A DNA stretch of 39,273 bases from an uncultured bacterium (GTDB taxonomy: Bacteria; Verrucomicrobiota; Kiritimatiellia; RFP12; UBA1067). Location: the NCBI GenBank assembly GCA_902803135.1, contig CADCPA010000304.1:1-39273 (forward strand), given 5' to 3'. The translations under genes and the position numbers were made by a program. The notes under the pieces are model-generated. The model was given only the letters and a program-made list of their open reading frames with translations, did no database searches and was not told where the DNA came from. Below are positions 3,035-16,153 of this stretch, piece by piece; the stretch's first letter is position 1; every line of letters starts with the position of its first letter.

Positions 3035-5485
3035 TCAGCGTGCGGCGCCCGGAGGGGTTGCGGACGCTTTCCCGCCGTCTTTCGCCGGCTCCTTCGCCCC
3101 CGCCGAGGCGGTCTTCCGCGCCGCGGCGATCTGGGCGAGGGTGTCCTTCACCTCGTCGGACTCCGGCAGCAGCTTCTGCGCCTTCAGGCCGTAGGCCTCG
3201 GCCTCGTCGAAGCTGCCCAGCTTCAGAAGGGCGAGCGCGAGGTTGTTCAGCACGGCCGGTTCGGACGGCTTGCGCGTGAGGCACCGCATGAGGGAATCCT
3301 TCGCCCGCGTCCACTGTTCGAGCTCGAAGTAGTTCATGCCCTCGCCGAAGTTGGCGTCGGGATCGTCGGGATCGGCCTCGAGAATCGGCTTCGCATACCG
3401 GCTCGCCAGGGCGAAGTCCGCACGCAGCAGCGCAAGCTGCAGGCCTTCGCGCGGCGTCACCTGGCGCAGCGTGGCGGCGCGGCGGCGCTCCGCAAGCTTG
3501 ATCAGACCCTTCAGGTCGCCGTTGGCGTCGTCGAGCCGGTCGGCGAATTTCTGCTCGGTCTTCGCCTGCGCGAGGTCGCCCGCGAGATCGGCCTGGACGG
3601 CCCGCAGACGGGCAAAGCGCGCGAGGCGCCACTGGATGAGCAGAAACACCTTCTTGGCGACGGCGCCAGCGGAGGCGTCGGGGCCGCCGGCCGCATAGAG
3701 ATCGAGGATGCGCGTCGCGAGCTTGTGCGCCGCCGCCACGCCGTCCTTGAGCTCGGCCTCGGGCATGCCCAGCCGCATCACCGTGCCCGAACTCGGGGGC
3801 ACCGTCTCGCCGTCGCGCAGCCACTGGGAATGGCCCATCATGAACGCGGCCTTTTCCAGACGCTCCGGTTTGTCGCGCTTCCAGGTGCGCAGCAGCGTGG
3901 CCACGCCCATGCCGAGCGCCGTGCGGTCTTCCTCGTCCGTCGCCACGCGCATCGACAGCTTCTTCTCATAGGCGGAATCGCCGCCGCGAAGGGAGAGCGT
4001 CGGGAGCTGGCGGCCCTTCTCCGCGGCCGCGAGTTCCAGCCGCGCGTCGAACACGCCGTCGGTGAACACGTACGCCGCGTCGCCGCATTCCTTCAACAGC
4101 TCCGCCATGTAGTCGTCGACGATGCCCAGCATGCGATGCGCCTTGACGAGGCGGCGGCCCGGCAGCACGCCCGCCAGCAGCACGAGCGCCACCACGCCGA
4201 ACAACCCGATTCGAGCGCGGCGGATCGACGCACGGGCCGGCTCGGCGCCTGTCTCGTCCTGCACGCGGAAGCTCGCCAGACGCACGTGATTGCGGCAGCA
4301 GGCATCCGTGCCGAGCACGACAAGGAAGTACGACACCGTAATCGCGGCCAGGAGCAGGAAGACCTGCAGCATGTAGGGCAGGCGCACTTCCGTGAGCGGA
4401 CTCCAGGTCCAGAACCAGACCTGGTGGGCCATCGAAAGCTGCGAATAGGCGATGACGCCGGAAATGAAGAAGATTCCGCCCACGTGGTACGGCAGAAACC
4501 GCTCTTCGTCGACGGCCCGCGGGAGCGTGATGCTCGACACGAGGAACGGCAGCGCGCAGAGCGCGAACGCGAAGATCCAGCCGAGGCCGCCCATCGCCTC
4601 CATGAGCACCGAGAGCCAACGCTGCGCATAGGCAATCGGCAGGCTCGACGTCAGCACCGCGCCGCCGCCCATCCTGAGGAAGCTCCAGCAGTTGAGGACG
4701 ACGCCCAATATGAAGCCGAAGCCCCAGAAGAACGTGAGAATCCACTTCGCCGTCTGCGCCGTCAGCGGGTCCAGCAGCGGCGTGTTTTCGCTCAGCGCGT
4801 CGTGGCGGAGCGCCATGTGGTAGGCAATCCAGCAGAACGTGACGAACATGATGCCGAGCGGCGTCTCGGCGGCCAGCAGGCCCAGCAGGCACATCGAGAC
4901 GTAGGCGCAGCCGAGGGTGCCGTTGAGCATGAAGACGACGAACGGCGTCAAACCGAGGATCGTGAGGAGGATCATCAGCTCTTCCGACGAGAAGGCCTGC
5001 GCCGACAGCCACACGGGATCCGCGCAGACGAAAAGGATCGCGCCGATGACTGCGGCGACGCGCTGGATGAGATACCGCCGCACCGCGAAACGGAGACGGC
5101 CGCGCACCAGAAGCGCGATGACCGTACGCAGGAACAGGTAGGTCGCGCCGGCCATGCAGCCCAGGCACAGATGCCCCAGGAGGCGAAGCATCGCCACGCC
5201 CGACGACACGCCGCCGAGGAAGAGTCCGCCCGCCAGCGTGCGCCAGAAGCCCGGGAAGATGTCCACCGGCGGACGCAGGCCCGCGGCGACCGCCGCGCCG
5301 TCCCACAGCGAGGGCACGAGGCCCGGCAGCGCGAAGACCGTCACGCCAAGGAAGGCGAGCACGCCCAGCACCGCCGCCAGAATCCAGTCCAGCAGCGTCA
5401 AGCGCTCGTTCGACAGGAACATCCGCTGAGGATGGTCGATTTCGGCAAAACCGTCGTCTTCGTCGTCGTAATATTTCTTCTTCAT
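3035..5485 (-). CDS. Polytopic membrane protein with C-terminal TPR repeats (possible GT-C/DUF2723-like glycosyltransferase)
   Basis: About 11 hydrophobic segments, then a soluble domain, then TPR-like repeats (DPDDPDANFGEGMNY, PSEPAVLNNLALALLKLG, PESDEVKDTLAQI). Start MKKKYY follows a GAGGAG RBS. Confidence 0.75.
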   Translation of the reverse strand: MKKKYYDDEDDGFAEIDHPQRMFLSNERLTLLDWILAAVLGVLAFLGVTVFALPGLVPSLWDGAAVAAGLRPPVDIFPGFWRTLAGGLFLGGVSSGVAMLRLLGHLCLGCMAGATYLFLRTVIALLVRGRLRFAVRRYLIQRVAAVIGAILFVCADPVWLSAQAFSSEELMILLTILGLTPFVVFMLNGTLGCAYVSMCLLGLLAAETPLGIMFVTFCWIAYHMALRHDALSENTPLLDPLTAQTAKWILTFFWGFGFILGVVLNCWSFLRMGGGAVLTSSLPIAYAQRWLSVLMEAMGGLGWIFAFALCALPFLVSSITLPRAVDEERFLPYHVGGIFFISGVIAYSQLSMAHQVWFWTWSPLTEVRLPYMLQVFLLLAAITVSYFLVVLGTDACCRNHVRLASFRVQDETGAEPARASIRRARIGLFGVVALVLLAGVLPGRRLVKAHRMLGIVDDYMAELLKECGDAAYVFTDGVFDARLELAAAEKGRQLPTLSLRGGDSAYEKKLSMRVATDEEDRTALGMGVATLLRTWKRDKPERLEKAAFMMGHSQWLRDGETVPPSSGTVMRLGMPEAELKDGVAAAHKLATRILDLYAAGGPDASAGAVAKKVFLLIQWRLARFARLRAVQADLAGDLAQAKTEQKFADRLDDANGDLKGLIKLAERRRAATLRQVTPREGLQLALLRADFALASRYAKPILEADPDDPDANFGEGMNYFELEQWTRAKDSLMRCLTRKPSEPAVLNNLALALLKLGSFDEAEAYGLKAQKLLPESDEVKDTLAQIAAARKTASAGAKEPAKDGGKASATPPGAAR

Positions 5486-5901: not shown

Positions 5902-7605
5902 TTAGAATCTGAACACGTTGCGATTGAATCCCGTCGTGACGATGTTCATGCGGCCGGCCTGCGTCTCCATCACGGAGGCGACCAGGTAGGTCCGCAACGA
6001 CGAAATTTTCTGATCCGCATCCGTGATGTCGAAGATTTCGCCATCGTCCCGCAGCGTGAGCTGCACGCCGTCGTTGAGGTCGAGCGTGACTTCGCCCAGC
6101 ACGCGCCGCGCGCCGTTGCGGTCCTTGACCGCCATGAACACCTCTTCGGTCATCAACGACGCGCGCATCGCGACGGTCGGCTTGACGCCGGCGGCCTTCA
6201 GCACCTCGCCGACCTGTTCGGACGCCCGGACGATCTCCTCGTCGTTCAGCGCGAGGTCGACCATCGAGATCTTCGCGTCGCGGTCCCGCGGCAGCAGCAG
6301 CGGGAACCGGGCGGCGCCATGGCGGAGGAGGAGGAAGGCCCCGAAAAGGACGAGCGCCGCCACCGGCGCCGCCGCCAGCGCGGCCCACAGTCCATACGCC
6401 CCCCTTCCGCCGCAGAGCAGCACGAGACCCACCGGCACGACGAAACCGTTCAGAACCGTCACCGCGACGGACAGTCCTTCATGGCCGACGAAGACATAGT
6501 AGGAATTGTAGAGGTAGGCAAGCGAATAGGCCACAAGTCCCGCGGCGACGAACCGCACGGCCGCGTGCGCGTCGCCGGCCAGCGCCGGATCGTCGATGCC
6601 CACCAGGCGCACGACGAGGCCGGGGAAGGCCAGCAGCAGCGCCGACAGCGCAGCCCCTTCCAGCAGGGCCAGCTTCGTGCCCATGCGCATCATCAGGCGG
6701 ATGGCCGGATAGTTCCGCTCCCCCGAATAGACGGTGACGATCGGCGCCAGCGCGTTGCCCACGCCGTTGAAGATCTCCAGGAGGCCGATCGTGACGATCA
6801 CCGTCGCCAGCACGGGCAGCATTCCGCTGCCGTAGCGGGAGATGACGAACTTGTTCAGGAAGAAGAAGAGCGCCGCCGAACAGAGGAAGGAACTGGCGTC
6901 GCCAAAGGAGGACGACACGATTCGTCCTGTGTCCTTCAGACTGAAATGGCGCACAAGGGCGAAGGAATTGGCCTTCGAGAGAAAATGCGTCGACAGCACG
7001 CCCGCCGCGACGACGTTGGCGACAATCGTGCCCAGCGCGCACCCCGCAACCCCCAGATCACGGATCGCCAGCAACGACACGGCCAGGTTGACGACGAGCT
7101 GGGCGGCGTAGCTGATGAAGCAGAGGCACGAGTTGCCGTCCGCCATCGCCACGTTCACCAGCAGAATCACACACGGCTCCAGCAGCGCCGAGGGGACGAA
7201 AAACCTCCAGTAGCGCCGCGCATATTCGGCGATTTCGGGCGAGGGGGACATGAACGCCAGGAACGGCTCGCGGAGGAAGATCAGCGCCGTGACGAGCATC
7301 AGACCGACCCCGAGGGCGGTCCACAGCCCCTGCGTGAAAATCTGCCGCGCCCGGTCCGGCGCGCACCGCCCCGATTCGAGCGCGTAGTTGACGCCCATGC
7401 CGACGCCGATCAGGCTGGCGAAGAACGTCACGACGCCCATCACCGACGACAGCAGATTGATGCCGGCCAGGGCCTGTTCGCCCAGCAGATTGCCGGCGAC
7501 CGCCGAGTCGGAAACCCCCATCAGAAACTCGACGACCGTCGCGAAACTCGCCGCGAGGAGGAGTCCCTTGAATTTCTCGATGCCGAAATAGCGTTTCACG
7601 GGCAT
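5902..7605 (-). CDS. MATE-family transporter fused to a degenerate C-terminal anti-sigma-type HATPase domain
   Basis: MATE motifs (DSAVAGNLLGEQALAGINL, LGVAGCALGT, GAYGLW) with ~12 TM segments. C-terminal 'EEVFMAV...LTLRDDGEIFD...GFNRNVFRF' is RsbW/SpoIIAB-like. Confidence 0.88.
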   Translation of the reverse strand: MPVKRYFGIEKFKGLLLAASFATVVEFLMGVSDSAVAGNLLGEQALAGINLLSSVMGVVTFFASLIGVGMGVNYALESGRCAPDRARQIFTQGLWTALGVGLMLVTALIFLREPFLAFMSPSPEIAEYARRYWRFFVPSALLEPCVILLVNVAMADGNSCLCFISYAAQLVVNLAVSLLAIRDLGVAGCALGTIVANVVAAGVLSTHFLSKANSFALVRHFSLKDTGRIVSSSFGDASSFLCSAALFFFLNKFVISRYGSGMLPVLATVIVTIGLLEIFNGVGNALAPIVTVYSGERNYPAIRLMMRMGTKLALLEGAALSALLLAFPGLVVRLVGIDDPALAGDAHAAVRFVAAGLVAYSLAYLYNSYYVFVGHEGLSVAVTVLNGFVVPVGLVLLCGGRGAYGLWAALAAAPVAALVLFGAFLLLRHGAARFPLLLPRDRDAKISMVDLALNDEEIVRASEQVGEVLKAAGVKPTVAMRASLMTEEVFMAVKDRNGARRVLGEVTLDLNDGVQLTLRDDGEIFDITDADQKISSLRTYLVASVMETQAGRMNIVTTGFNRNVFRF

Positions 7606-7862
7606 TAGGCCTGCGGCGTGCGGAGGATGCGCAGAACCTCGCCGATGGCGACGATCAGCTCCCTCGATTCGAATCGATCAATCCAGCCATCCGCCAGAAC
7701 CTTGTCGATCTTTCCCAGCAAATAGGAGAAATCGACGCCGTCGCCATGCTCTTCAAGCCAGCGCTTGAGGATCCGCGCCTCGTCCACATCGACCTTCTCG
7801 TCCTGGAGGATGCCCTTCGTCAGCATCCAGAACTCGCGGCCTTTCTCTTCTCGTGTCAGCAT
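7605..7862 (-). CDS. Small stand-alone TerB-like helical protein, 85 aa
   Basis: AAGGAG RBS and its own promoter. Two motifs, ILQDEKVDVDE and VLADGWIDRFE. TAATG stop/start overlap with the MATE gene. Confidence 0.8.
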   Translation of the reverse strand: MLTREEKGREFWMLTKGILQDEKVDVDEARILKRWLEEHGDGVDFSYLLGKIDKVLADGWIDRFESRELIVAIGEVLRILRTPQA

Positions 7863-7894
7863 GAAATTTCTCCTTGGACAATCAATGACCCATT

Positions 7895-7923
7895 ATTTTA
7901 CCATAAACCCGCTGACGAGACAA
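7895..7923 (-). promoter_or_regulatory. Sigma70-type promoter for the small TerB-like gene and MATE
   Basis: Minus strand TTGTCT-17 bp-TAAAAT with an extended -10 TG. Confidence 0.6.
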
Positions 7924-7945
7924 ACCGCAAATGAGGTCGATGCGC

Positions 7946-9598
7946 CTAGTCCTTCGGACCACCCCAGCGGTCGGCGTCCTTGATGCCGGGCTCCGTCTCC
8001 GAGAAGGCATAGTCCTTGCCCGGAAGGACCGCATTCAGGACGATGCCCATCAGGGCGCCCACCGCAAGACCGGAGAGCGAGATCGTCGCCGAACCGAGGT
8101 GGAAGGCGATCGCCTTTGCGTTCGAGAAGCTGATGCCGAGCGTGCAGACGATCGACACGGCGCAGATGAGCATGTTGCGCGGTTTCGAGAAGTCCACCTG
8201 GTGCTCGACGAGGTTGCGCACGCCCACGGCGGAGATCATGCCGTAGAGGATGAAGGATACGCCGCCCACGGTCGCCGCCGGGAGGGTCGTGATCACCGCC
8301 GCGAACTTCGGACAGAACGCGAGCAGGATCGCCAGCACCGCCGCGATGCGGATCACGCGCGGATCGTAGACCTTCGAGAGGGACAGCACGCCCGTGTTCT
8401 CGCCGTAGGTCGTATTGGCCGGGGCGCCGAAGACCGCAGCCAGGAACGTCGCGGCGCCGTCGCCGAGCATCGTACGGTGCAGACCCGGATCCGCGAAGAA
8501 ATTACGGTTGACCGTCGAGGAGATGGCGGACACGTCGCCGACGTGCTCCATCAACGTCGCGGCGCAGAGCGGCGTCACGGTCAGGATCGACGAGAGGATA
8601 CGGTCCGCATTGTCGCCTGCGTGGGCGAGGACGGGGAACACCGTCTCGTTCCAATGGAACGGCAGGCCGATCCACGGCGCAGCGCCGATCTTCGAGAAGT
8701 CGACGGCGGCGGACGGTACGCCGCACCAGTTGCCAAGCACGACGGCGGTCAGATACGAGGCGACGACGCCGATGAGGATCGGGATGATCTTCACCATGCC
8801 CTTGCCGAACACGGAGGCGAGTATCACCGCCAGGATGCCGACGAGCGCCACCGGCCAGCACGACGAGGCGCTGTTCACCGCGACCGGCGACAGCACGAGA
8901 CCGATGCCGATGATGATCGGGCCCGTCACGACCGGCGGGAAGAACTTCATCACCGTCTTCACGCCGAAGGCCTTCACGAAGCCCGAGACGACCACATAGA
9001 CCAGCGCGGCCACGCACACGCCCACCGAGGCGTACGCGAGGAGATCGGTCTTCGCCAGCCCTTCCCAGCCCGGCTTGCCCTCCAGGCCCGTGAGCGCGAA
9101 GTAGCCGGCGAGGAACGCGAAGCTCGAACCGAGGAACGCCGGCACGATGCGCTTCGTGAGGAAATGGAAGAGCAGCGTGCCGAGACCGGCGAAGAGCAGC
9201 GTCGCGGAGACGCTCAGGCCCGTCAGCAGCGGCACAAGCACCGTCGCGCCGAACATGGCGAAGAGATGCTGCACGCCGAGCAGGCCCATCTTCGGCAGGC
9301 CGAGCGTGCGGGCGTCGTAGATGGCGCCGGCGTCGGCATACTTCGCCTTGAGCGTCTGGATCGCCGCGGCGATGGCGACGGATTCCTCAGCCGTCACGAC
9401 GCCATCTTCGGCGACGTCGGCAAGGAGATGGGCGAACGCGGCGAGGTCGGGATCCTGGCCCTTGGCCGCGAGCGGCCTGACGAGGCCCAGCAGGGCCTTC
9501 GTCTCGGCAAGGTCGGCCTTGCCGTCGGCGTAGGTGAACTTTTCGGCGGCGCGCAGCAACTGGCCCGCGGCCTGCAGCTCCTGGGAGGAGAGGGACAT
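7946..9598 (-). CDS. uraA: Uracil/xanthine permease (NCS2, UraA/PyrP family) with extra N-terminal TerB-like domain
   Basis: GVQHLFAMFGATVLVP, PAFLGSSFAF, FPPVVTGPII, and the NAT signature NTTYGENTGVL. About 88 extra N-terminal residues contain ADGKADLAE and EDGVVTAEE. Confidence 0.92.
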   Translation of the reverse strand: MSLSSQELQAAGQLLRAAEKFTYADGKADLAETKALLGLVRPLAAKGQDPDLAAFAHLLADVAEDGVVTAEESVAIAAAIQTLKAKYADAGAIYDARTLGLPKMGLLGVQHLFAMFGATVLVPLLTGLSVSATLLFAGLGTLLFHFLTKRIVPAFLGSSFAFLAGYFALTGLEGKPGWEGLAKTDLLAYASVGVCVAALVYVVVSGFVKAFGVKTVMKFFPPVVTGPIIIGIGLVLSPVAVNSASSCWPVALVGILAVILASVFGKGMVKIIPILIGVVASYLTAVVLGNWCGVPSAAVDFSKIGAAPWIGLPFHWNETVFPVLAHAGDNADRILSSILTVTPLCAATLMEHVGDVSAISSTVNRNFFADPGLHRTMLGDGAATFLAAVFGAPANTTYGENTGVLSLSKVYDPRVIRIAAVLAILLAFCPKFAAVITTLPAATVGGVSFILYGMISAVGVRNLVEHQVDFSKPRNMLICAVSIVCTLGISFSNAKAIAFHLGSATISLSGLAVGALMGIVLNAVLPGKDYAFSETEPGIKDADRWGGPKD

Positions 9599-9612
9599 GA
9601 CGTGACTCCTGG

Positions 9613-10464
9613 TTATTTGTCGGGATATTGGATGAGGGAAGAGACGGAATAGGGGGCCAAGACGCCCGTACGGGCCTGGAACCCCGCGAGCTCGATCGGG
9701 AAGAGCATCTTCACGACGCGGCCGCCGAGACGCTCGACGAGACGCGCACAGGCGAGCACCGTGCCGCCCGTCGCGAGCAGGTCGTCGACGATGACCGCCC
9801 TTTCGCCGACGTAGAGCGCGTCCTTGTGCATGTGGAGCGTCGCCGTGCCGTATTCAAGCGCATAGTCCTCGTGGATCGTAGCGCGCGGCAGCTTGCCGGG
9901 CTTGCGCACGGGCACGAAGGCCTTGCCGAAGTGGGCCGCGAGCGCCGCCCCGAAGATGAAGCCGCGCGACTCGGGGGCGACGACCACGTCGAAGTCCACC
10001 TGTTCGAGCTCGCGGACGGACATCTCGAGGCACAGGTTGAATCCTTCGGCGTTGTCGAAGATGCCGGTCACGTCGCGGAAGAGGATGCCGGGCTTCGGGA
10101 AGTCGGGGATCTCGCGCACGTACTCGGCGAGAGACAGCTTGCCGCGGCGGATTTCCGCCAGCAGCGCGAAGATTTCAGCCGATTCCGCGTCCGAAATCTC
10201 GCCATCGGCCCGGGCGGCGACGAGACGCTGCTCGAGGCGGCGGGCCTCCGGGTTGCCCCGGAGGGAATAGGGCTTCACCAGACGCAGCAGCGCGGCCGTC
10301 TTCGGGAGGTCGATCTTGCCGTCGGCGAACAGAGCCTGCTGGCAGAGGTCCGCAAGGCCGAGCATCGCAGCGGTTTCATCCAGATCGACCGTGCCGTCCG
10401 CCAGCACGAAATCCTTCAGGCCCTGCAGAATCTGCAGGAAAGCCTTCTTCTCGCGTGCGTTCAT
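9613..10464 (-). CDS. apt: Adenine phosphoribosyltransferase with extra N-terminal TerB-like domain
   Basis: IPDFPKPGILFRDVT, PESRGFIFG, VRKPGKLP, YALEYG and the PRPP loop VIVDDLLATGGT. About 107 extra N-terminal residues carry three ADG motifs. Confidence 0.95.
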   Translation of the reverse strand: MNAREKKAFLQILQGLKDFVLADGTVDLDETAAMLGLADLCQQALFADGKIDLPKTAALLRLVKPYSLRGNPEARRLEQRLVAARADGEISDAESAEIFALLAEIRRGKLSLAEYVREIPDFPKPGILFRDVTGIFDNAEGFNLCLEMSVRELEQVDFDVVVAPESRGFIFGAALAAHFGKAFVPVRKPGKLPRATIHEDYALEYGTATLHMHKDALYVGERAVIVDDLLATGGTVLACARLVERLGGRVVKMLFPIELAGFQARTGVLAPYSVSSLIQYPDK

Positions 10465-10506
10465 GACGCTGCCCTTTCCTTCGGGGGTCCGTCGGCTTTC
10501 CCCGGC

Positions 10507-12216
10507 TTACATCAGCGCATACTTCGCCACAAAGAGCGCCGTGAGGACGTACATGATCCAGTGGATGCGTTTGAAGTGGCCGGAAAGCGCGTTGATCGCC
10601 GTATAGGAAATCACGCCGAACATGATGCCGTCGGAGATCGAATAGGCGAACGGCATCGCGACGATCGCGAGGAACGCCGGCACGGCTTCGCCCGCATCGG
10701 AGAAGTCGATGTCCGTGCAGGAGGAGAGCATCATGTAGCCCACGATGATGAGCGCGGGCGCGGTCGCGAACGCGGGGATGGCGAGGAACACGGGCGCGAA
10801 GAGGATTGCAAGGGCGAAGAACGCCGCGGCGACGACGCCCGTGAGGCCGGTCTTGCCGCCGGCCACGACGCCGGAGGCGGATTCGACATAGGTCGTCGTC
10901 GTGGAGGTGCCGAGCATCGCGCCGACGGAGGTCGCGATCGAGTCGGCGCAGAGCGCGCCGGAGATGCGCGGCAGCTTGCCTTCCTTGTCGAGGAAACCGC
11001 CCTTCATCGAGACGCCGATGAGCGTGCCGAGCGTGTCGAAGAGGTCCACGAAGAAGAACGCGAACATGACGACGAAGAAGTCGAGCGACTTCACGAGCGA
11101 CCAGCCCGAACCGGCCACGGCCGCCGCGCCGTCCGCGCCCTTCACGGTGTGCGTCCAGCTCGCGGGGTTGAAGAGCGCGCCGACCGTCTGGCCGAATTCC
11201 CTGAAGTTCTGGGCGATGCCCTCGAACGAGAAGTTCGGGTAGAGCGAGAACGCCTTCGCCGCCGGATCCGGAATGTAGATGCCCGTGCACTGGCAGAGCA
11301 TGCCCGCACACCAGGTCGCGAGGATGCCGACGAGGATGGCGCCCTTCACGCGCTTGACGAGCATGAAGCCCGTCAGCAGCGTCCCGGCGAGCGCAAGAAG
11401 CGCGCTGATGCCGGCCGTGTGGAAGTTCACGTTCTTGAAGGACACAAGGGCCACGAGCGTCGCCTCGTTGTTGACGATGACGCCGGCCGTCTGCAACGCG
11501 ATGAAGCAGATGAACAGGCCGATGCCGGCCGCGACCGCCTTCTTCAGCGAGAACGGAATGGCGTTGAAGATGCCTTCGCGCACGGGCGTCAGCGAGAGCG
11601 CGAGGAACAGGAGACCTTCGACGAACACCGCCAAAAGCGCGAACTGCCAGCTATACCCCATGCCCAGCACGACGCCGTACGTGAGGAACGCGTTGAGGCC
11701 CATGCCCGGCGCGAGCACGAACGGATAGTTCGACATGAAGGCCATGAGCAGCGTGCCGACGACGGCGGCGATCGTCGTCGCGAGGAACACGCCGCCGCGC
11801 GGGATGCCCGCGGTCGACAGGATGTTCGGGTTCACGGCGAGGATGTAGGCCATCGTCATGAACGTCGTGATGCCGGCGACGACTTCCGTCTTGGCCGTGG
11901 TACGGTTGCGCTTGAGCTTGAAGATGCGTCCGAGGAAGCCGGTGTCGGACTCCTCCGTCTTGACCTCGCGCATCAACCACTTCAGGTGGGCGCCCAGGCG
12001 CACCGACTCCTCGTGCGTGATGACCTCGTCCGCAAGCGCGCCTTCCAGCACGAGGGCGAACTCCGCCATCTCCACGTTGTCCTTCGCCCGCGCTTTCGCG
12101 AAGGAAAGCAGAATCTGCGCTTCCGCGCGATCGACCTTCCCGTCCGCAAGGATGTACTTCTCCAACTTCGCGATCGACGCCTTGATGTCTTCCATCTTGA
12201 TGTCTTCCGTAGCCAT
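10507..12216 (-). CDS. Purine (guanine/hypoxanthine/adenine) permease, NCS2 AzgA/PbuG family, with extra N-terminal TerB-like domain
   Basis: TEVVAGITTFMTMAYILAVNP, APGMGLNAF, DLFDTLGTL, TTYVESASGV, GGKTGLT and ATAPAL motifs. About 85 extra N-terminal residues contain LADGKVDRAE and LADEVITHEE. Confidence 0.93.
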   Translation of the reverse strand: MATEDIKMEDIKASIAKLEKYILADGKVDRAEAQILLSFAKARAKDNVEMAEFALVLEGALADEVITHEESVRLGAHLKWLMREVKTEESDTGFLGRIFKLKRNRTTAKTEVVAGITTFMTMAYILAVNPNILSTAGIPRGGVFLATTIAAVVGTLLMAFMSNYPFVLAPGMGLNAFLTYGVVLGMGYSWQFALLAVFVEGLLFLALSLTPVREGIFNAIPFSLKKAVAAGIGLFICFIALQTAGVIVNNEATLVALVSFKNVNFHTAGISALLALAGTLLTGFMLVKRVKGAILVGILATWCAGMLCQCTGIYIPDPAAKAFSLYPNFSFEGIAQNFREFGQTVGALFNPASWTHTVKGADGAAAVAGSGWSLVKSLDFFVVMFAFFFVDLFDTLGTLIGVSMKGGFLDKEGKLPRISGALCADSIATSVGAMLGTSTTTTYVESASGVVAGGKTGLTGVVAAAFFALAILFAPVFLAIPAFATAPALIIVGYMMLSSCTDIDFSDAGEAVPAFLAIVAMPFAYSISDGIMFGVISYTAINALSGHFKRIHWIMYVLTALFVAKYALM

Positions 12217-12308: not shown

Positions 12309-12602
12309 CTAGGCGATTGTCAGAATGCTGCTGAAGCCCGTGATGTCCAGCACTTCCTTCACCGTCGGCTGGAGGCCGACGACGGTCATCGAGCCGCCGC
12401 CCGCCATCATCTTTTTCTGGGCGGACAGCAGACAGCGAAGGCCCGCCGAACTCATGTACGGCACGCCCGAAAGGTCCAGCGTGAGCGTCTCGTTGCCGAC
12501 CAGCTGCAGACCCGCGTCGAGTTCCGGCGCCGTCGTCGTGTCGACACGCCCCGTCACCGCAATCACCAGCTTGCCGTCTTCCGTCTTTTTCGCAATCTCC
12601 AT
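12309..12602 (-). CDS. STAS-domain anti-sigma-factor antagonist (RsbV/SpoIIAA-like)
   Basis: GRVDTTTAPEL, DLSGVPYMSSAGLR (phosphoacceptor Ser motif) and VLDITGF. Confidence 0.95.
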   Translation of the reverse strand: MEIAKKTEDGKLVIAVTGRVDTTTAPELDAGLQLVGNETLTLDLSGVPYMSSAGLRCLLSAQKKMMAGGGSMTVVGLQPTVKEVLDITGFSSILTIA

Positions 12603-12617
12603 TCCGAACTCCTTGTT

Positions 12618-12663
12618 AACTCACAACTCTCAACTCACAACTCACAACTCACAACTCTCAACT
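12618..12663. repeat. Heptamer tandem repeat (AACTCWC) x6.5
   Basis: aactcac aactctc aactcac aactcac aactcac aactctc aact, lying between the phosphatase stop codon (which it overlaps) and the STAS RBS. Confidence 0.95.
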
Positions 12664-14712
12664 GCCATAGGTCAGCCCCATCGTCAGCACGTTGCGTCCG
12701 TCCTTGCGGCTGTACATGACCGGCGACATCGTCTTCTTCACGATGAAGATGCCCATGCCGCCGAGGGTGCGGTTCTCGGCGGACAACGTCGTATCCGGAT
12801 CGCGCGCGGCGAGCGGATCGAAGGGCTTGCCGTCGTCCGTCAGCACGAGGCGCACGCTGTCGGGACACGCCGTGAACACGACGCGGAGCGTCCAGCTCGT
12901 CGCCCCCGAATACCGCACGATGTTCGCGAAAATCTCGTCCGCCGCGACCATCAGCTTCATCTGCTGCGCCATCGGCACGGGCTCGAGCGCGGCCTCGAGG
13001 TCGGCCGTCGCCTGGGCGAGGTCTTCCATCGTCGGCCGATACGAATACTCGACGACACGGGAGGAGCCCCGATAGCGGAGGACGAGCTGCGTGCAGTCGT
13101 CCGCCTGTTCAATCTCGCCGGCATGCCGTTTGACCGCCGCCAGCACCTGTTCGAGCACTTCCTTCTGATGGTAGCGCGACGACTTGAGCACGTCGACAAG
13201 ACGCGTCTCGCCGAACAGCTCGCCCGACGGGTCGGGCTGTTCGGTGATGCCGTCCGTATAGAGGTAGATGGCGTCTCCTGCGCCCAGCCGGATGTCCCGG
13301 CTCCGGTAGGGAACGCCCGCCATGGCGCCCAGCACGAGGCCGGGGCTGTCGCGCAGATAGGCGACCTCGTCGCCCCTCCGCACCACCGGCGGGTTGTGGC
13401 CCGCGTTGACATAGGTCACAACGCCGGTATCGAGATTGAGTTCGCCGATCCAGGCCGTGACGAACATGTTCGTCTCGTTGCCCTCGCAGAGCGCGTCGTT
13501 CGTCTCGGTCACGACCTGATGAAGCGGCTTTCCCGTCTGGGCCGTGCCCTTCAGGAGCGTCTTCGCCCGCATCATGAACATCGCGGCGGGAATGCCCTTG
13601 CCGCTGACGTCCGCAATCAGGAAGGCCAGCTTTCGCGGCCCGGTGAAGTAGAAGTCGTAGAAGTCGCCGCCGACGACCTTTGCGGTCTTCATGTCGGCGT
13701 AGATGTCGAACGCCGTCTCGTTCGGGAATGGCGGGAAGACGCCCGGCATCGCGGAGAACTGGATGTCCTGCGCCATCTGCAGCTCCTTCTCCGCGCGTTC
13801 CTGCGCCATCCGCCGTTCGCGCTCGGCCTGCTCGCGCTCCTGCCTCCGCACGAAGCCGGAGATCACGATCGCCACGAAGATCGCCACGAAAGTCAACGCC
13901 ACGGCGTTCAGAATCGCCGTCGAACCCACAAGCACGTTGCGCGTGACGGCGGCGGCGGAACGCGGAATCATCACGTAGACGGGGAAGCCGTCGATGTCGC
14001 GCTTCTGCCAGTAGAAGGAAGGGTCGGGGTCCTTCCAATGCGTACCCTCGCGACCGTTCTCCGCGAGATCGGAGATGACGAGTCCCTCGCGCGTCGTGAT
14101 GACGACGCCGCCCACGCCGGACACATGCCAGTGTGCCGTGATGCCCGTGAGCGACGTGCGCGAGAGGTTGCGCAACGACTCGCCGTCGCAGCCGATTTCC
14201 ACGAAACCGCCCTTCGGACGCCACACGCCCACGTACTTGCGCCAGGATCCGTTGGCGGAGTTCTGCCGGTACGGCTGGCAGTATTCCGTATCGAGGCCGT
14301 CGATGAGCCGCATCATGTCGGCGGCCTGCCCGCCCGCCGCCGCAAAATTGAACGCCGGCTGGCCGTCGTGCGCCAGATACTCCGGCACGGAGGACTTGAC
14401 GATGTCGCCCTTCCCGTCGACCAGGCTGATTTCCGTCACCTGCAGCTCATGGGCGAGCGAAATGAGCGACTCCGTATCCGTCGGATAGCCCTCGTCGAAC
14501 CGCTCGCGCGCCGCCATCGCCTGGCGGACCAGACGGGCGTTGACGCGGGAGACGATGGATTCGGAGACGTCCTGAAAGGCGTTTTCGATCAGCTTGTCGG
14601 CCTCGCGCCGCGCCAGATAGTCCTGCAACAGCCAGGTGACGAACATCGAGGCCGCGAAGGCCAGCAGCACGCTGCCGACCAGCTTGAGACGCAGATTGCC
14701 GACGTCGGTCAT
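12658..14712 (-). CDS. Membrane sensor with SpoIIE/RsbU PP2C phosphatase and C-terminal RsbW-like HATPase kinase
   Basis: Two TM segments flank a periplasmic domain. PP2C motifs: VGGDFYDF, IADVSGKGIPAA, MFVT, NAGHNPP, LYTDGITE, ADDCT. HATPase motifs: DEIFANIVRY, DDGKPFDP, GGMGIFIV. Confidence 0.93.
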   Translation of the reverse strand: MTDVGNLRLKLVGSVLLAFAASMFVTWLLQDYLARREADKLIENAFQDVSESIVSRVNARLVRQAMAARERFDEGYPTDTESLISLAHELQVTEISLVDGKGDIVKSSVPEYLAHDGQPAFNFAAAGGQAADMMRLIDGLDTEYCQPYRQNSANGSWRKYVGVWRPKGGFVEIGCDGESLRNLSRTSLTGITAHWHVSGVGGVVITTREGLVISDLAENGREGTHWKDPDPSFYWQKRDIDGFPVYVMIPRSAAAVTRNVLVGSTAILNAVALTFVAIFVAIVISGFVRRQEREQAERERRMAQERAEKELQMAQDIQFSAMPGVFPPFPNETAFDIYADMKTAKVVGGDFYDFYFTGPRKLAFLIADVSGKGIPAAMFMMRAKTLLKGTAQTGKPLHQVVTETNDALCEGNETNMFVTAWIGELNLDTGVVTYVNAGHNPPVVRRGDEVAYLRDSPGLVLGAMAGVPYRSRDIRLGAGDAIYLYTDGITEQPDPSGELFGETRLVDVLKSSRYHQKEVLEQVLAAVKRHAGEIEQADDCTQLVLRYRGSSRVVEYSYRPTMEDLAQATADLEAALEPVPMAQQMKLMVAADEIFANIVRYSGATSWTLRVVFTACPDSVRLVLTDDGKPFDPLAARDPDTTLSAENRTLGGMGIFIVKKTMSPVMYSRKDGRNVLTMGLTYGS

Positions 14713-15433: not shown

Positions 15434-16054
15434 TCAGAGCGTTCCGAAAATGCGGTCGCCCGCGTCGCCCAGCCCGGGCACGATGTAGTAGTGGCTGTTG
15501 AGACGCTCGTCCTTCGCCGCCGTGTACACCGGCACGTCGGGATGGTTCTTCTCGAAGTTGGCAATGCCTTCCGGCGCCGACACGAGATTGAGGAAGATGA
15601 TCTTCTCGTAGCCGAGCTTCTTGAGCTGCGTCACGGCGTCGACCGCGCTGCCGCCCGTGGCGAACATCGGATCGATCACGATGGCGAATTCGCCGCCCTT
15701 CGCCGGCGGCACCTTCGCGTAATAGGGAATCGGCTCGGCCGTCTCTTCGTTGCGCTGCATGCCCAGAACGCCCACCTTGGCATAGGGCAGCACATGGAGC
15801 ATCGCGTCGAGCATGCCCATGCCGGCACGGAGAATCGGCACGAGCACGATCTTCTCGTCGATCTTCCGGCCGATGGTCTTCGCCACGGGCGTCTGAATCT
15901 CGACCGGCTTCGTCCTGAGATCCTTCAACGCCTCGAACGCGAGGAACTGGGTGATTTCGCTCACGAGCTCGCGAAACAGCTTCGGCGGCGTGGACTGGTC
16001 GCGCATGAGCGTCATGCGGTGGTCGACAAGCGGATGGTTGAGTACGGTCGTCAT
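15434..16054 (-). CDS. upp: Uracil phosphoribosyltransferase
   Basis: HPLVDHRMTLMRD, VPILRAGMGM, DPMFATGGS and YIVPGLGDAGDRIFGT; GGAGG RBS before MTTVL. Confidence 0.97.
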   Translation of the reverse strand: MTTVLNHPLVDHRMTLMRDQSTPPKLFRELVSEITQFLAFEALKDLRTKPVEIQTPVAKTIGRKIDEKIVLVPILRAGMGMLDAMLHVLPYAKVGVLGMQRNEETAEPIPYYAKVPPAKGGEFAIVIDPMFATGGSAVDAVTQLKKLGYEKIIFLNLVSAPEGIANFEKNHPDVPVYTAAKDERLNSHYYIVPGLGDAGDRIFGTL

Positions 16055-16077
16055 TTTCCGAATCCCTCCAAATAGCA

Positions 16078-16117
16078 GACAAGAGGCGGAACGGGCATCG
16101 CCCTTCCGCCTCTCGTC
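16078..16117 (-). terminator. Strong intergenic stem-loop between the porin gene and upp (terminator/attenuator or mRNA stabiliser)
   Basis: Minus strand GACGAGAGGCGGAAGGGC-GAT-GCCCGTTCCGCCTCTTGTC, followed by TGCTATTT and then the upp RBS. Confidence 0.55.
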
Positions 16118-16153
16118 CGATTTGATCTTCAACGCTTCACGCGCAGCTTCCGT

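Follow-up and report, generated by a model that had tools for sequence, protein, structure and literature searches.

An acidic helical module shared by two nucleobase permeases, an adenine phosphoribosyltransferase and a stand-alone protein in a rumen and gut Kiritimatiellae genus

We analysed a stretch of 39,273 nucleotides (contig CADCPA010000304.1, hereafter the window) from a Kiritimatiellae bacterium of the cattle gut. Five co-oriented minus-strand genes at positions 5902-12216 lead from an AzgA-type nucleobase permease through adenine phosphoribosyltransferase (Apt), a UraA-type permease and an 85-residue protein to a MatE-family efflux gene. The first four of these genes share one homologous module, which forms an N-terminal extension (hereafter the tag) on the two permeases and on Apt and occurs as a stand-alone copy in the 85-residue protein. 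The features of the cluster are listed below in the order of the minus strand.

10507-12216, minus strand: AzgA-type NCS2 permease, 569 amino acids; N-terminal tag at about residues 1-92 (window 11941-12216), permease core from about residue 95
9613-10464, minus strand: Apt, adenine phosphoribosyltransferase, 283 amino acids, made up of a half-repeat, a full tag and the core
10345-10464, minus strand: half-repeat of Apt, residues 1-40
10135-10344, minus strand: full tag of Apt, about residues 41-110, followed by the core at residues 111-283
7946-9598, minus strand: UraA-type NCS2 permease, 550 amino acids; N-terminal tag at about residues 1-95 (window 9314-9598)
7895-7923, minus strand: promoter-like site (TTGTCT, 17-nt spacer, TG-TAAAAT) within the 83 nt that separate the uraA-type stop from the start of the stand-alone copy
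7605-7862, minus strand: stand-alone copy of the module, 85 amino acids, of a separate sub-family; its stop overlaps the MatE start (TAATG)
5902-7605, minus strand: MatE-family efflux protein, 567 amino acids (PF01554, E-value 1.2e-22), with a C-terminal extension of about 130 residues

A homologous module on four adjacent genes

Both permeases pass the membership cut-off of the NCS2 family (Xan_ur_permease, PF00860; 27 bits) over the full transporter core, with matches at residues 111-531 of the AzgA-type protein (E 2.3e-30, 106 bits) and residues 106-493 of the UraA-type protein (E 3.5e-79, 266.8 bits). The UraA-type protein scores 278.1 bits against the uracil-permease equivalog NF007995, under its cut-off of 477, so that UraA-type is a best-match label and the substrate a presumed one. 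No NCBIfam model for an AzgA-type subfamily matched the 569-residue permease, and its label is our assumption from the N-terminal motif of the core. Apt passes two equivalog models over the full profile, NF002636 with 202.8 bits (cut-off 125) and TIGR01090 with 199 bits (cut-off 185.85); these start at residues 111 and 112, respectively, and profile positions 1-169 of TIGR01090 correspond to residues 112-280. Because the Pfam and NCBIfam cores start only at these points, both permeases and Apt carry approximately 100-110 extra residues at their N-termini.

The N-terminal pieces of the AzgA-type protein, Apt and the UraA-type protein align with the 85-residue protein, with invariant columns D, K, D, L, D, E and S. 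Pairwise blastp of the copies, run as two-sequence searches, gave E-values from 2.5e-11 (UraA-type against AzgA-type N-terminus, 36% over 77 residues) to 0.009 (stand-alone copy against UraA-type N-terminus). A profile of the four window copies was then searched against the six-frame translation of the genome, where it recovered the copies on the AzgA-type gene (E 9.9e-39), the stand-alone gene (E 1.6e-35), the UraA-type gene (E 2.4e-32) and Apt (E 1e-29), together with the extra half-repeat at the extreme N-terminus of Apt (E 6.1e-4). The same search located, on another contig, an NhaC-family Na+/H+ antiporter (PF03553) whose C-terminus carries a fifth copy of the module (E 9.9e-12); this fusion is also kept in the relatives G001, G012 and G002.

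G000:C127:2074-4221, plus strand: NhaC-family antiporter with the fifth copy, domain at 3946-4218 (locus L009)

The aligned columns, blastp results and profile matches agree with the initial annotation, which had claimed one homologous module, with the two acidic motifs that it quoted, on four adjacent co-oriented genes. They agree equally, together with the positions of core and tag, with its view that the module was grafted onto two NCS2 permeases and the Apt of one pathway, and that such proteins normally begin at their core domains; the untagged form is the norm in the Pfam and NCBIfam profiles and is exemplified by an untagged UraA of the relative G002. Its count of one copy per gene holds for the AzgA-type, UraA-type and stand-alone genes, while Apt carries one and a half copies. 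The profile of four copies, which it had recommended as a check, yielded the fifth copy in the genome.

It is very improbable that translation really starts downstream, where the canonical cores begin, and that the extensions are untranslated annotation artefacts. In-frame methionines near the core boundary, at residue 103 of the UraA-type protein and residue 82 of the AzgA-type protein, are compatible with such starts, but a Shine-Dalgarno-like sequence precedes the upstream, first ATG in all four module genes (AzgA-type GAAAGGAA, Apt GAAGGAAAGGG, UraA-type AGGAG, stand-alone copy AAGGAG). These sequences speak for genuine N-terminal extensions on a point that the initial annotation had singled out for checking. 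Further evidence against downstream starts comes from protein-level conservation of the extensions in 10 or more genomes, with ratios of non-synonymous to synonymous substitution rates (dN/dS) below 1, from the confident predicted fold of the stand-alone copy (given below), and from the tag being in frame with PF00860 in 88 of 88 longer database matches. The module region is under purifying selection: its dN/dS between orthologues is 0.22-0.40 in seven of eight AzgA/UraA pairs and 0.89 in the eighth, and 0.43-0.78 in three Apt pairs, with values of 0.11-0.40 for the cores.

An assembly chimera was also considered and is ruled out by tagged clusters in relatives and by contigs that span the junctions. 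Bovine-gut DNA contigs from three studies run from the domain into the core with 0-5 differences, one of the runs being possibly the window's own source. On a bovine-gut contig of run X5, a 16-nt insertion was found at window 12247, in non-coding sequence upstream of the AzgA-type start, and by eye it appears to duplicate the adjacent sequence. In an RNA run (X20, with a 0.06 share of words), the contigs map to the conserved cores with 90-95% likeness, the three N-domain bins are nearly uncovered, and the run is uninformative about expression. Taken together, the presence of the module on the four window genes is confirmed as real, neither an assembly nor an annotation artefact.

Fold of the module and its relation to TerB and EF-hand domains

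According to AlphaFold2 models, the module is an acidic four-helix bundle of about 80 residues, composed of two helix-loop-helix units. The stand-alone copy was modelled with a predicted local distance difference test (pLDDT) score of 93.8 and a predicted template-modelling (pTM) score of 0.84, with helices at residues 4-21, 26-38, 46-58 and 63-81, and residues 1-95 of the AzgA-type protein with a pLDDT of 74.5 and helices at 8-22, 30-44, 48-62 and 68-90. Both models share the same order of elements, and the two acidic motifs form the loops between helices 1 and 2 and between helices 3 and 4. Motif 1 reads A-D-G-x-[VI]-D-x-x-E, and motif 2, 38 residues further on (D25 to D63), reads D-G-x-[IV]-[TS]-x-E-E-S. 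The loop residues D, D, E, D, E and S are nearly invariant in 64 sequences, and D, E, L, D and E in 144 sequences with unrelated partners. Across 133 copies the median net charge is -2 to -5 and the median isoelectric point 4.8-5.5, and the linkers between module and core measure about 10 residues or less.

The initial annotation had read the paired motifs as the signature of the TerB fold, an assignment that is weakly supported overall. In its favour, two helix-ADG-x-h-x-x-x-E-helix units are present, as TerB requires, and the same motif occurs in the 21 canonical TerB domains of the phylum from which we built an alignment. Comparison of the module with these 21 segments by hhalign gave a probability of 79% (P 1.6e-5) over 31 confidently aligned columns, and in the greedy mode both motifs align, given an insertion of about 35 residues in TerB. 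Reciprocal hmmsearch matches between module and TerB were obtained only in very small databases. Against the assignment, the motifs are spaced 38 residues apart in the module versus about 72 in canonical TerB, and the gathering cut-off of the TerB model PF05099 (24.4 bits) was not reached: the best score, 14.5 bits (E 0.045), fell on the half-repeat of Apt only, and the other three proteins gave no match. On the module, every Pfam and NCBIfam model stays below its cut-off, and the stand-alone protein is without any Pfam or NCBIfam match. Searched against the whole genome, PF05099 found none of the five copies and only a canonical TerB-domain protein (G000:C296:7694-8020, plus strand, 66.6 bits, in a 360-residue frame), which the profile of the tag in turn missed. 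The Foldseek check for TerB that had been proposed likewise turned out negative, with no TerB-like entry among the Protein Data Bank matches listed for the two models (best E 1.3 and 1.7).

EF-hand proteins provide the other comparison. The best EF-hand entry in Foldseek is S100A1, with a TM-score of 0.37, and a search of the Protein Data Bank with the sequence profile matched the EF-hand proteins calsenilin and KChIP at E 0.006-0.06 and 2h5n, which we take to be a TerB-like entry, at E 0.6. When 144 profile matches were scanned at E <= 1e-3, PF05099 was found in 21 and EF-hand_5 in 5. In the ESM Atlas, the best match (0.83) is a cluster named 'hypothetical protein', and partly TerB-annotated clusters at ranks 11 and 16 (0.76-0.77) serve as a lead only. 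An EF-hand pair, as in the lobes of calmodulin, KChIP or calsenilin, resembles the module in having two helix-loop-helix units within about 75 residues and a loop-to-loop spacing of about 36-38, and the D-G-x-[IV]-[DT]-x-x-E of the module corresponds to positions 5-12 of the EF-hand loop. It differs in that the loops of the module, as assigned by DSSP, are only 4-7 residues long and carry hydrophobic residues at loop positions 1 and 3. The TerB family (PF05099, in the TerB-like clan with DUF533/YebE) shares with the module a hydrophobic helix ending in A-D-G-x-h-x-x-x-E, twice, and frequent placement on membrane proteins; unlike the canonical domain, the module is shorter and has four helices only. 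We therefore read the module, from these sequence comparisons, as a short, divergent and unannotated relative of the TerB-type 'ADG' helix-loop-helix, which falls outside Pfam TerB by the tests run. TerB itself is described in an excerpt of a published account as binding a ligand and possibly sensing a signal that phosphoribosyltransferases (PRTases) produce, and is proposed there to bind a ligand or metal (PMC7824862).

Partners, history and neighbourhood of the module

A profile search of 1.84 billion representative sequences returned 512 matches at E <= 1e-3, 46 of them at E <= 1e-10, and partners were tabulated for the best 150 of the 512. Six of these have an AzgA-type core and four a UraA-type core (including P0060), and P0047 is another NCS2 fragment. 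Apt accounts for four more, and a uracil phosphoribosyltransferase (UPRTase, P0064) bears a C-terminal copy. Further salvage proteins with the module are a second xanthine-type NCS2 permease, described below, and possibly a nucleoside symporter fragment (P0023, E 0.0012). Other partners are NhaC, represented by C-terminal fragments (two by core match, plus similar short fragments by eye), Acyl_transf_3 proteins and an SDF symporter with C-terminal copies (three and one, respectively), one HlyD-like protein (P0062), BRCT proteins (22) and RNase_T exonuclease proteins (7), while about 25 proteins of 105-115 residues consist, by eye, of the domain and one C-terminal transmembrane helix. A search for longer proteins, word-indexed and hence biased to the query's own kind, gave 88 matches, all with PF00860 as the sole transporter or enzyme domain; their source names, where given, read 'NCS2 family permease [Kiritimatiellae bacterium]'. 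The module is thus not specific to the salvage pathway, being found also on NhaC, SDF, Acyl_transf_3, HlyD, BRCT and nuclease proteins. In other families of the Kiritimatiellia (L158, L159, L161-L163) it is joined to a conserved C-terminal domain, about 130 residues long and nuclease-like in appearance, and class relatives carry it also in DnaQ-exonuclease-GYF and BRCT proteins. The BRCT, nuclease and DnaQ partners suggest a DNA-processing branch of the module family.

The salvage fusions are far more narrowly distributed. The nearest public records of the window are metagenome-assembled genomes (MAGs) of rumen and gut Kiritimatiellae/Verrucomicrobiota. Four of these MAGs (L075-L078) and the genome G018 show the same order of tagged AzgA-type gene, tagged Apt and tagged UraA-type gene, with an SDF symporter inserted in two of the four, and G017 has a pair of tagged AzgA and tagged UraA. 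The module is present in 11 of 18 other genomes of the genus, as opposed to none of 12 genomes of other families of the order. Even sampling of the class gave matches at E <= 1e-6 in 14 of 301 genomes, and the 11 of these that lie outside the genus have BRCT, nuclease or DnaQ-GYF architectures, with a salvage protein in none. The cluster of tagged AzgA-type, Apt and UraA-type genes is an innovation specific to one rumen and gut Kiritimatiellae genus. In our literature search, no description of a TerB-like domain on Apt or on nucleobase permeases came up; the arrangement of the module on importers and Apt is new to the literature as searched, and public annotation ignores the module.

Within the genus the pattern of tagging varies. 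Both PF00860 genes of the window's own genome are tagged (2/2). In G002, one locus (L037; G002:C371, 8600-12304) comprises MatE, STAS, tagged AzgA, an open reading frame of 429 residues, a second, xanthine-type and tagged NCS2 permease, an untagged Xpt-like gene and the untagged UraA, whose core is 90% identical to that of the window UraA-type protein. This locus shows that the tag was gained or lost recently. With the query used (E <= 1e-10), Apt was not found in G017, G004 and G005, genomes that are 79-91% complete, and the Apt match of G002 is cut by a contig end.

To follow the history of the copies, a maximum-likelihood tree was computed from 64 domain segments (109 columns, with many unresolved forks); the window Apt, which has two domain matches, was left out. 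The copies form clans by partner class: AzgA (support 94/83), Apt (90/77), NhaC (97/96) and the stand-alone copies (100/100). With each partner class in one clan, the fusions are old, in keeping with the earlier claim that the copies are diverged and no recent duplication. The AzgA, UraA and Apt copies, with one SDF copy, fall into a single clan (96/82) and are each other's closest relatives, which fits a spread of the module through shuffling among adjacent genes. Residues 1-37 of the window Apt and the N-terminus of the second tagged NCS2 permease in G002 share 76% identity; the 5' end of the Apt gene is therefore a chimera that arose in a rearrangement between tagged genes, and it preserves a visible trace of such shuffling. 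Orthologous Apt fusions elsewhere are about 252-256 residues long and have one module.

The stand-alone copies group with tail-anchored forms (99/99), far from the salvage copies. Their orthologues in five relatives neighbour MatE (G018), HlyD-like and AcrB genes (G004, G005), TatD (G011) or tRNA synthetases (G002), so that the stand-alone copy adjoins efflux genes, MatE or HlyD/AcrB, in three of five further genomes; a fused HlyD form of the module exists as well (P0062). A scan for the promoter consensus gave 3 sites versus 0.8 expected in shuffles, as a consensus match only. The idea that the free copy acts as adaptor or competitor of the salvage system did not hold up, given the separate clan, the efflux neighbours, the promoter-like site of its own and the overlap with MatE. 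The stand-alone copy is probably not an adaptor of the salvage system and is, judging from this context, probably an unfused tag of the adjacent MatE efflux gene. The C-terminal 138 residues of MatE match no Pfam family, and by eye this extension (window 5902-6318, minus strand) resembles a GHKL or anti-sigma-kinase-like fold.

Upstream of the cluster lie signalling genes and a further salvage gene, all on the minus strand.

12309-12602, minus strand: stand-alone STAS protein, 97 amino acids (PF01740, E 4.5e-16), directly upstream of the tagged AzgA-type gene
12658-14712, minus strand: membrane SpoIIE (PP2C) phosphatase fused to an RsbW-like HATPase_c_2 kinase domain, 684 amino acids (PF07228, E 9.3e-53; PF13581, E 4e-15)
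15437-16132, minus strand: untagged uracil phosphoribosyltransferase-like gene (PF00156 at 15557-15859), about 3.2 kb upstream of the cluster

The SpoIIE-RsbW-like kinase fusion and the STAS protein make up a partner-switching set directly upstream of the tagged AzgA-type gene. STAS holds the same place in L037, L076 and L078 (3 of 9 related loci searched), and in L076 and L078 an orthologue of the SpoIIE-kinase gene is also found upstream of the AzgA-type gene. A link between STAS signalling and the NCS2 permeases is possible. As the untagged gene at 15437-16132 (presumably Upp, a name given by eye from the translation) lies upstream of the partner-switching genes, salvage genes stand on both sides of the signalling genes. 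A tandem heptamer (unit AACTCAC on the plus strand, 6.6 copies, 92% matches) occupies window 12618-12663, between the SpoIIE-kinase and STAS genes. An Rfam scan of the whole window found no family at gathering score, and therefore no purine riboswitch.

Function of the module and comparison with known systems

The module most likely has a regulatory function. In the reading that we prefer and put forward tentatively, the module would be a cytoplasmic, membrane-proximal switch whose two acidic loops bind a divalent cation or small ligand. Since it sits directly on the N-terminus of each of the AzgA-type, UraA-type and Apt proteins, one shared signal could tune nucleobase import and the trapping of the base as adenosine monophosphate (AMP) together. 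The module is cytoplasmic in the soluble partner Apt and lies at the termini of the membrane-protein partners, and we assume from general knowledge that the termini of UraA face the cytoplasm. Conservation of the acidic loop residues is independent of the partner, which points to binding by the loops rather than to a partner-specific interface.

Several observations weigh against this shared switch. Neither Foldseek model has a metal-binding analogue among the matches listed. EF-hand models gave no match on the window proteins in the Pfam scan, and in a test of the 12-residue EF-hand loop positions 5, 9 and 12 fit while positions 1 and 3 are hydrophobic, not acidic. The module evolves faster than the cores and is weakly constrained on Apt, as the dN/dS values above indicate. 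Only one of the six PF00156 genes of the genome is tagged, the Upp-like and Hpt-like PRTases being untagged, and at least one partner can do without the tag, as the UraA of G002, with its 90% identical core, lacks it. A shared sensor alone would also leave unexplained why the soluble partners are base-trapping PRTases, a pattern that favours physical docking.

Under docking, the main idea of the initial annotation, the modules on permeases and Apt would bind each other, perhaps bridged by a cation, and hold Apt at the cytoplasmic mouth of the adenine importer, where the imported base would be trapped as AMP at once. We consider such a metabolon a doubtful alternative, and it is unlikely that the tag builds a physical, possibly cation-dependent permease-PRTase assembly in which import and phosphoribosylation become one coupled step. 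Several observations favour docking: the soluble enzymes identified with the module in the best 150 of 512 matches are nucleobase PRTases (four Apt and one UPRTase), permeases importing the substrates of those PRTases are also tagged, and the AzgA, UraA and Apt copies share one clan. Tagged AzgA-type and UraA-type genes flank Apt in all six genomes or loci with a tagged Apt (the window, G018 and L075-L078), and the forms with one transmembrane helix place the module at the membrane face. According to an excerpt of a preprint, one TerB-like protein is predicted to form a homodimer, and TerB proteins are proposed to alternate between the cytoplasm and the membrane (bioRxiv 10.1101/2025.09.30.679545). 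Yet tagged permeases occur without an adjacent tagged Apt in G017, G002, G004 and G005, the Upp-like gene near the cluster is untagged though the UraA-type permease is tagged, and the UraA of G002, with its closely similar core, lacks the tag. The module also stands on proteins without a plausible common complex (BRCT proteins, DnaQ and HNH nucleases, NhaC, Acyl_transf_3), and the short linkers would give a tether little reach. A predicted complex of AzgA residues 1-95 with Apt residues 1-112 scored 0.00 in two runs, with alignments of 10 rows and no controls, and is counted neither way.

A passive structural appendage, in which the bundle stabilises the partner's dimer or expression or is a neutral lineage-specific extension spread by local recombination, is a rather improbable explanation. 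The restriction of the salvage fusions to one genus, the loss of the tag without loss of its partner (the UraA of G002), the faster evolution of the module relative to the cores and the tolerance of a chimeric half-repeat on Apt would all fit it. The near invariance of the same loop residues across very different partners does not, nor do a permease-module dN/dS well below 1 and the retention of the module by each partner class as the genus diverged.

In textbooks, the nucleobase transporters and salvage PRTases of bacteria consist of a single domain, and to our knowledge their post-translational control is almost unexplored. One module on every NCS2 importer of a genome and on the adenine-trapping enzyme therefore offers a handle on co-regulation or physical coupling of import and phosphoribosylation. 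The module also represents a compact TerB/EF-hand-like 'ADG' sub-family of about 80 residues, unannotated in current domain libraries, with partners from transporters to BRCT and nuclease proteins. If docking were true, the arrangement would realise at the protein level the old idea of a mechanical link between purine uptake and PRTase action, and the tag could be reused to connect enzymes with transporters. Because the organisms are uncultured rumen and gut Kiritimatiellae, the direct impact will be modest until a function is known.

Beside TerB and the EF-hand pair, three known systems come close to the present arrangement. Operons such as uraA-upp or pbuX-xpt couple a nucleobase permease with a PRTase, so that the importer and the enzyme trapping its substrate are encoded together; a pbuX-like/xpt-like pair (names by eye) is present in G002. 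In those permease-PRTase operons the coupling is, as far as we know, transcriptional and metabolic only, and we know of no common protein module described for them. SulP/SLC26 transporters, which belong to the same 7+7 inverted-repeat fold class as UraA, carry a cytoplasmic STAS domain, and thus likewise combine a small cytoplasmic regulatory domain with a transporter of this class. Their STAS domain differs from the module in being C-terminal, of unrelated fold and not common to an enzyme, and in the window STAS is a separate upstream gene. For the Ter system, a link between TerB and PRTases was reportedly drawn by Anantharaman, Iyer and Aravind in 2012. The general Pfam scan showed no Ter genes among the window genes, and no search aimed at Ter genes was made. 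The Ter system resembles the present case in that a TerB-type domain is tied to nucleobase PRTases, and an excerpt of the account cited above proposes TerB as a sensor of a nucleoside-like signal (PMC7824862). Its link is one of gene neighbourhood in a stress or defence system with TerC, TerD and TelA, whereas in the window the module is fused directly to a housekeeping-type Apt equivalog and to the importers.

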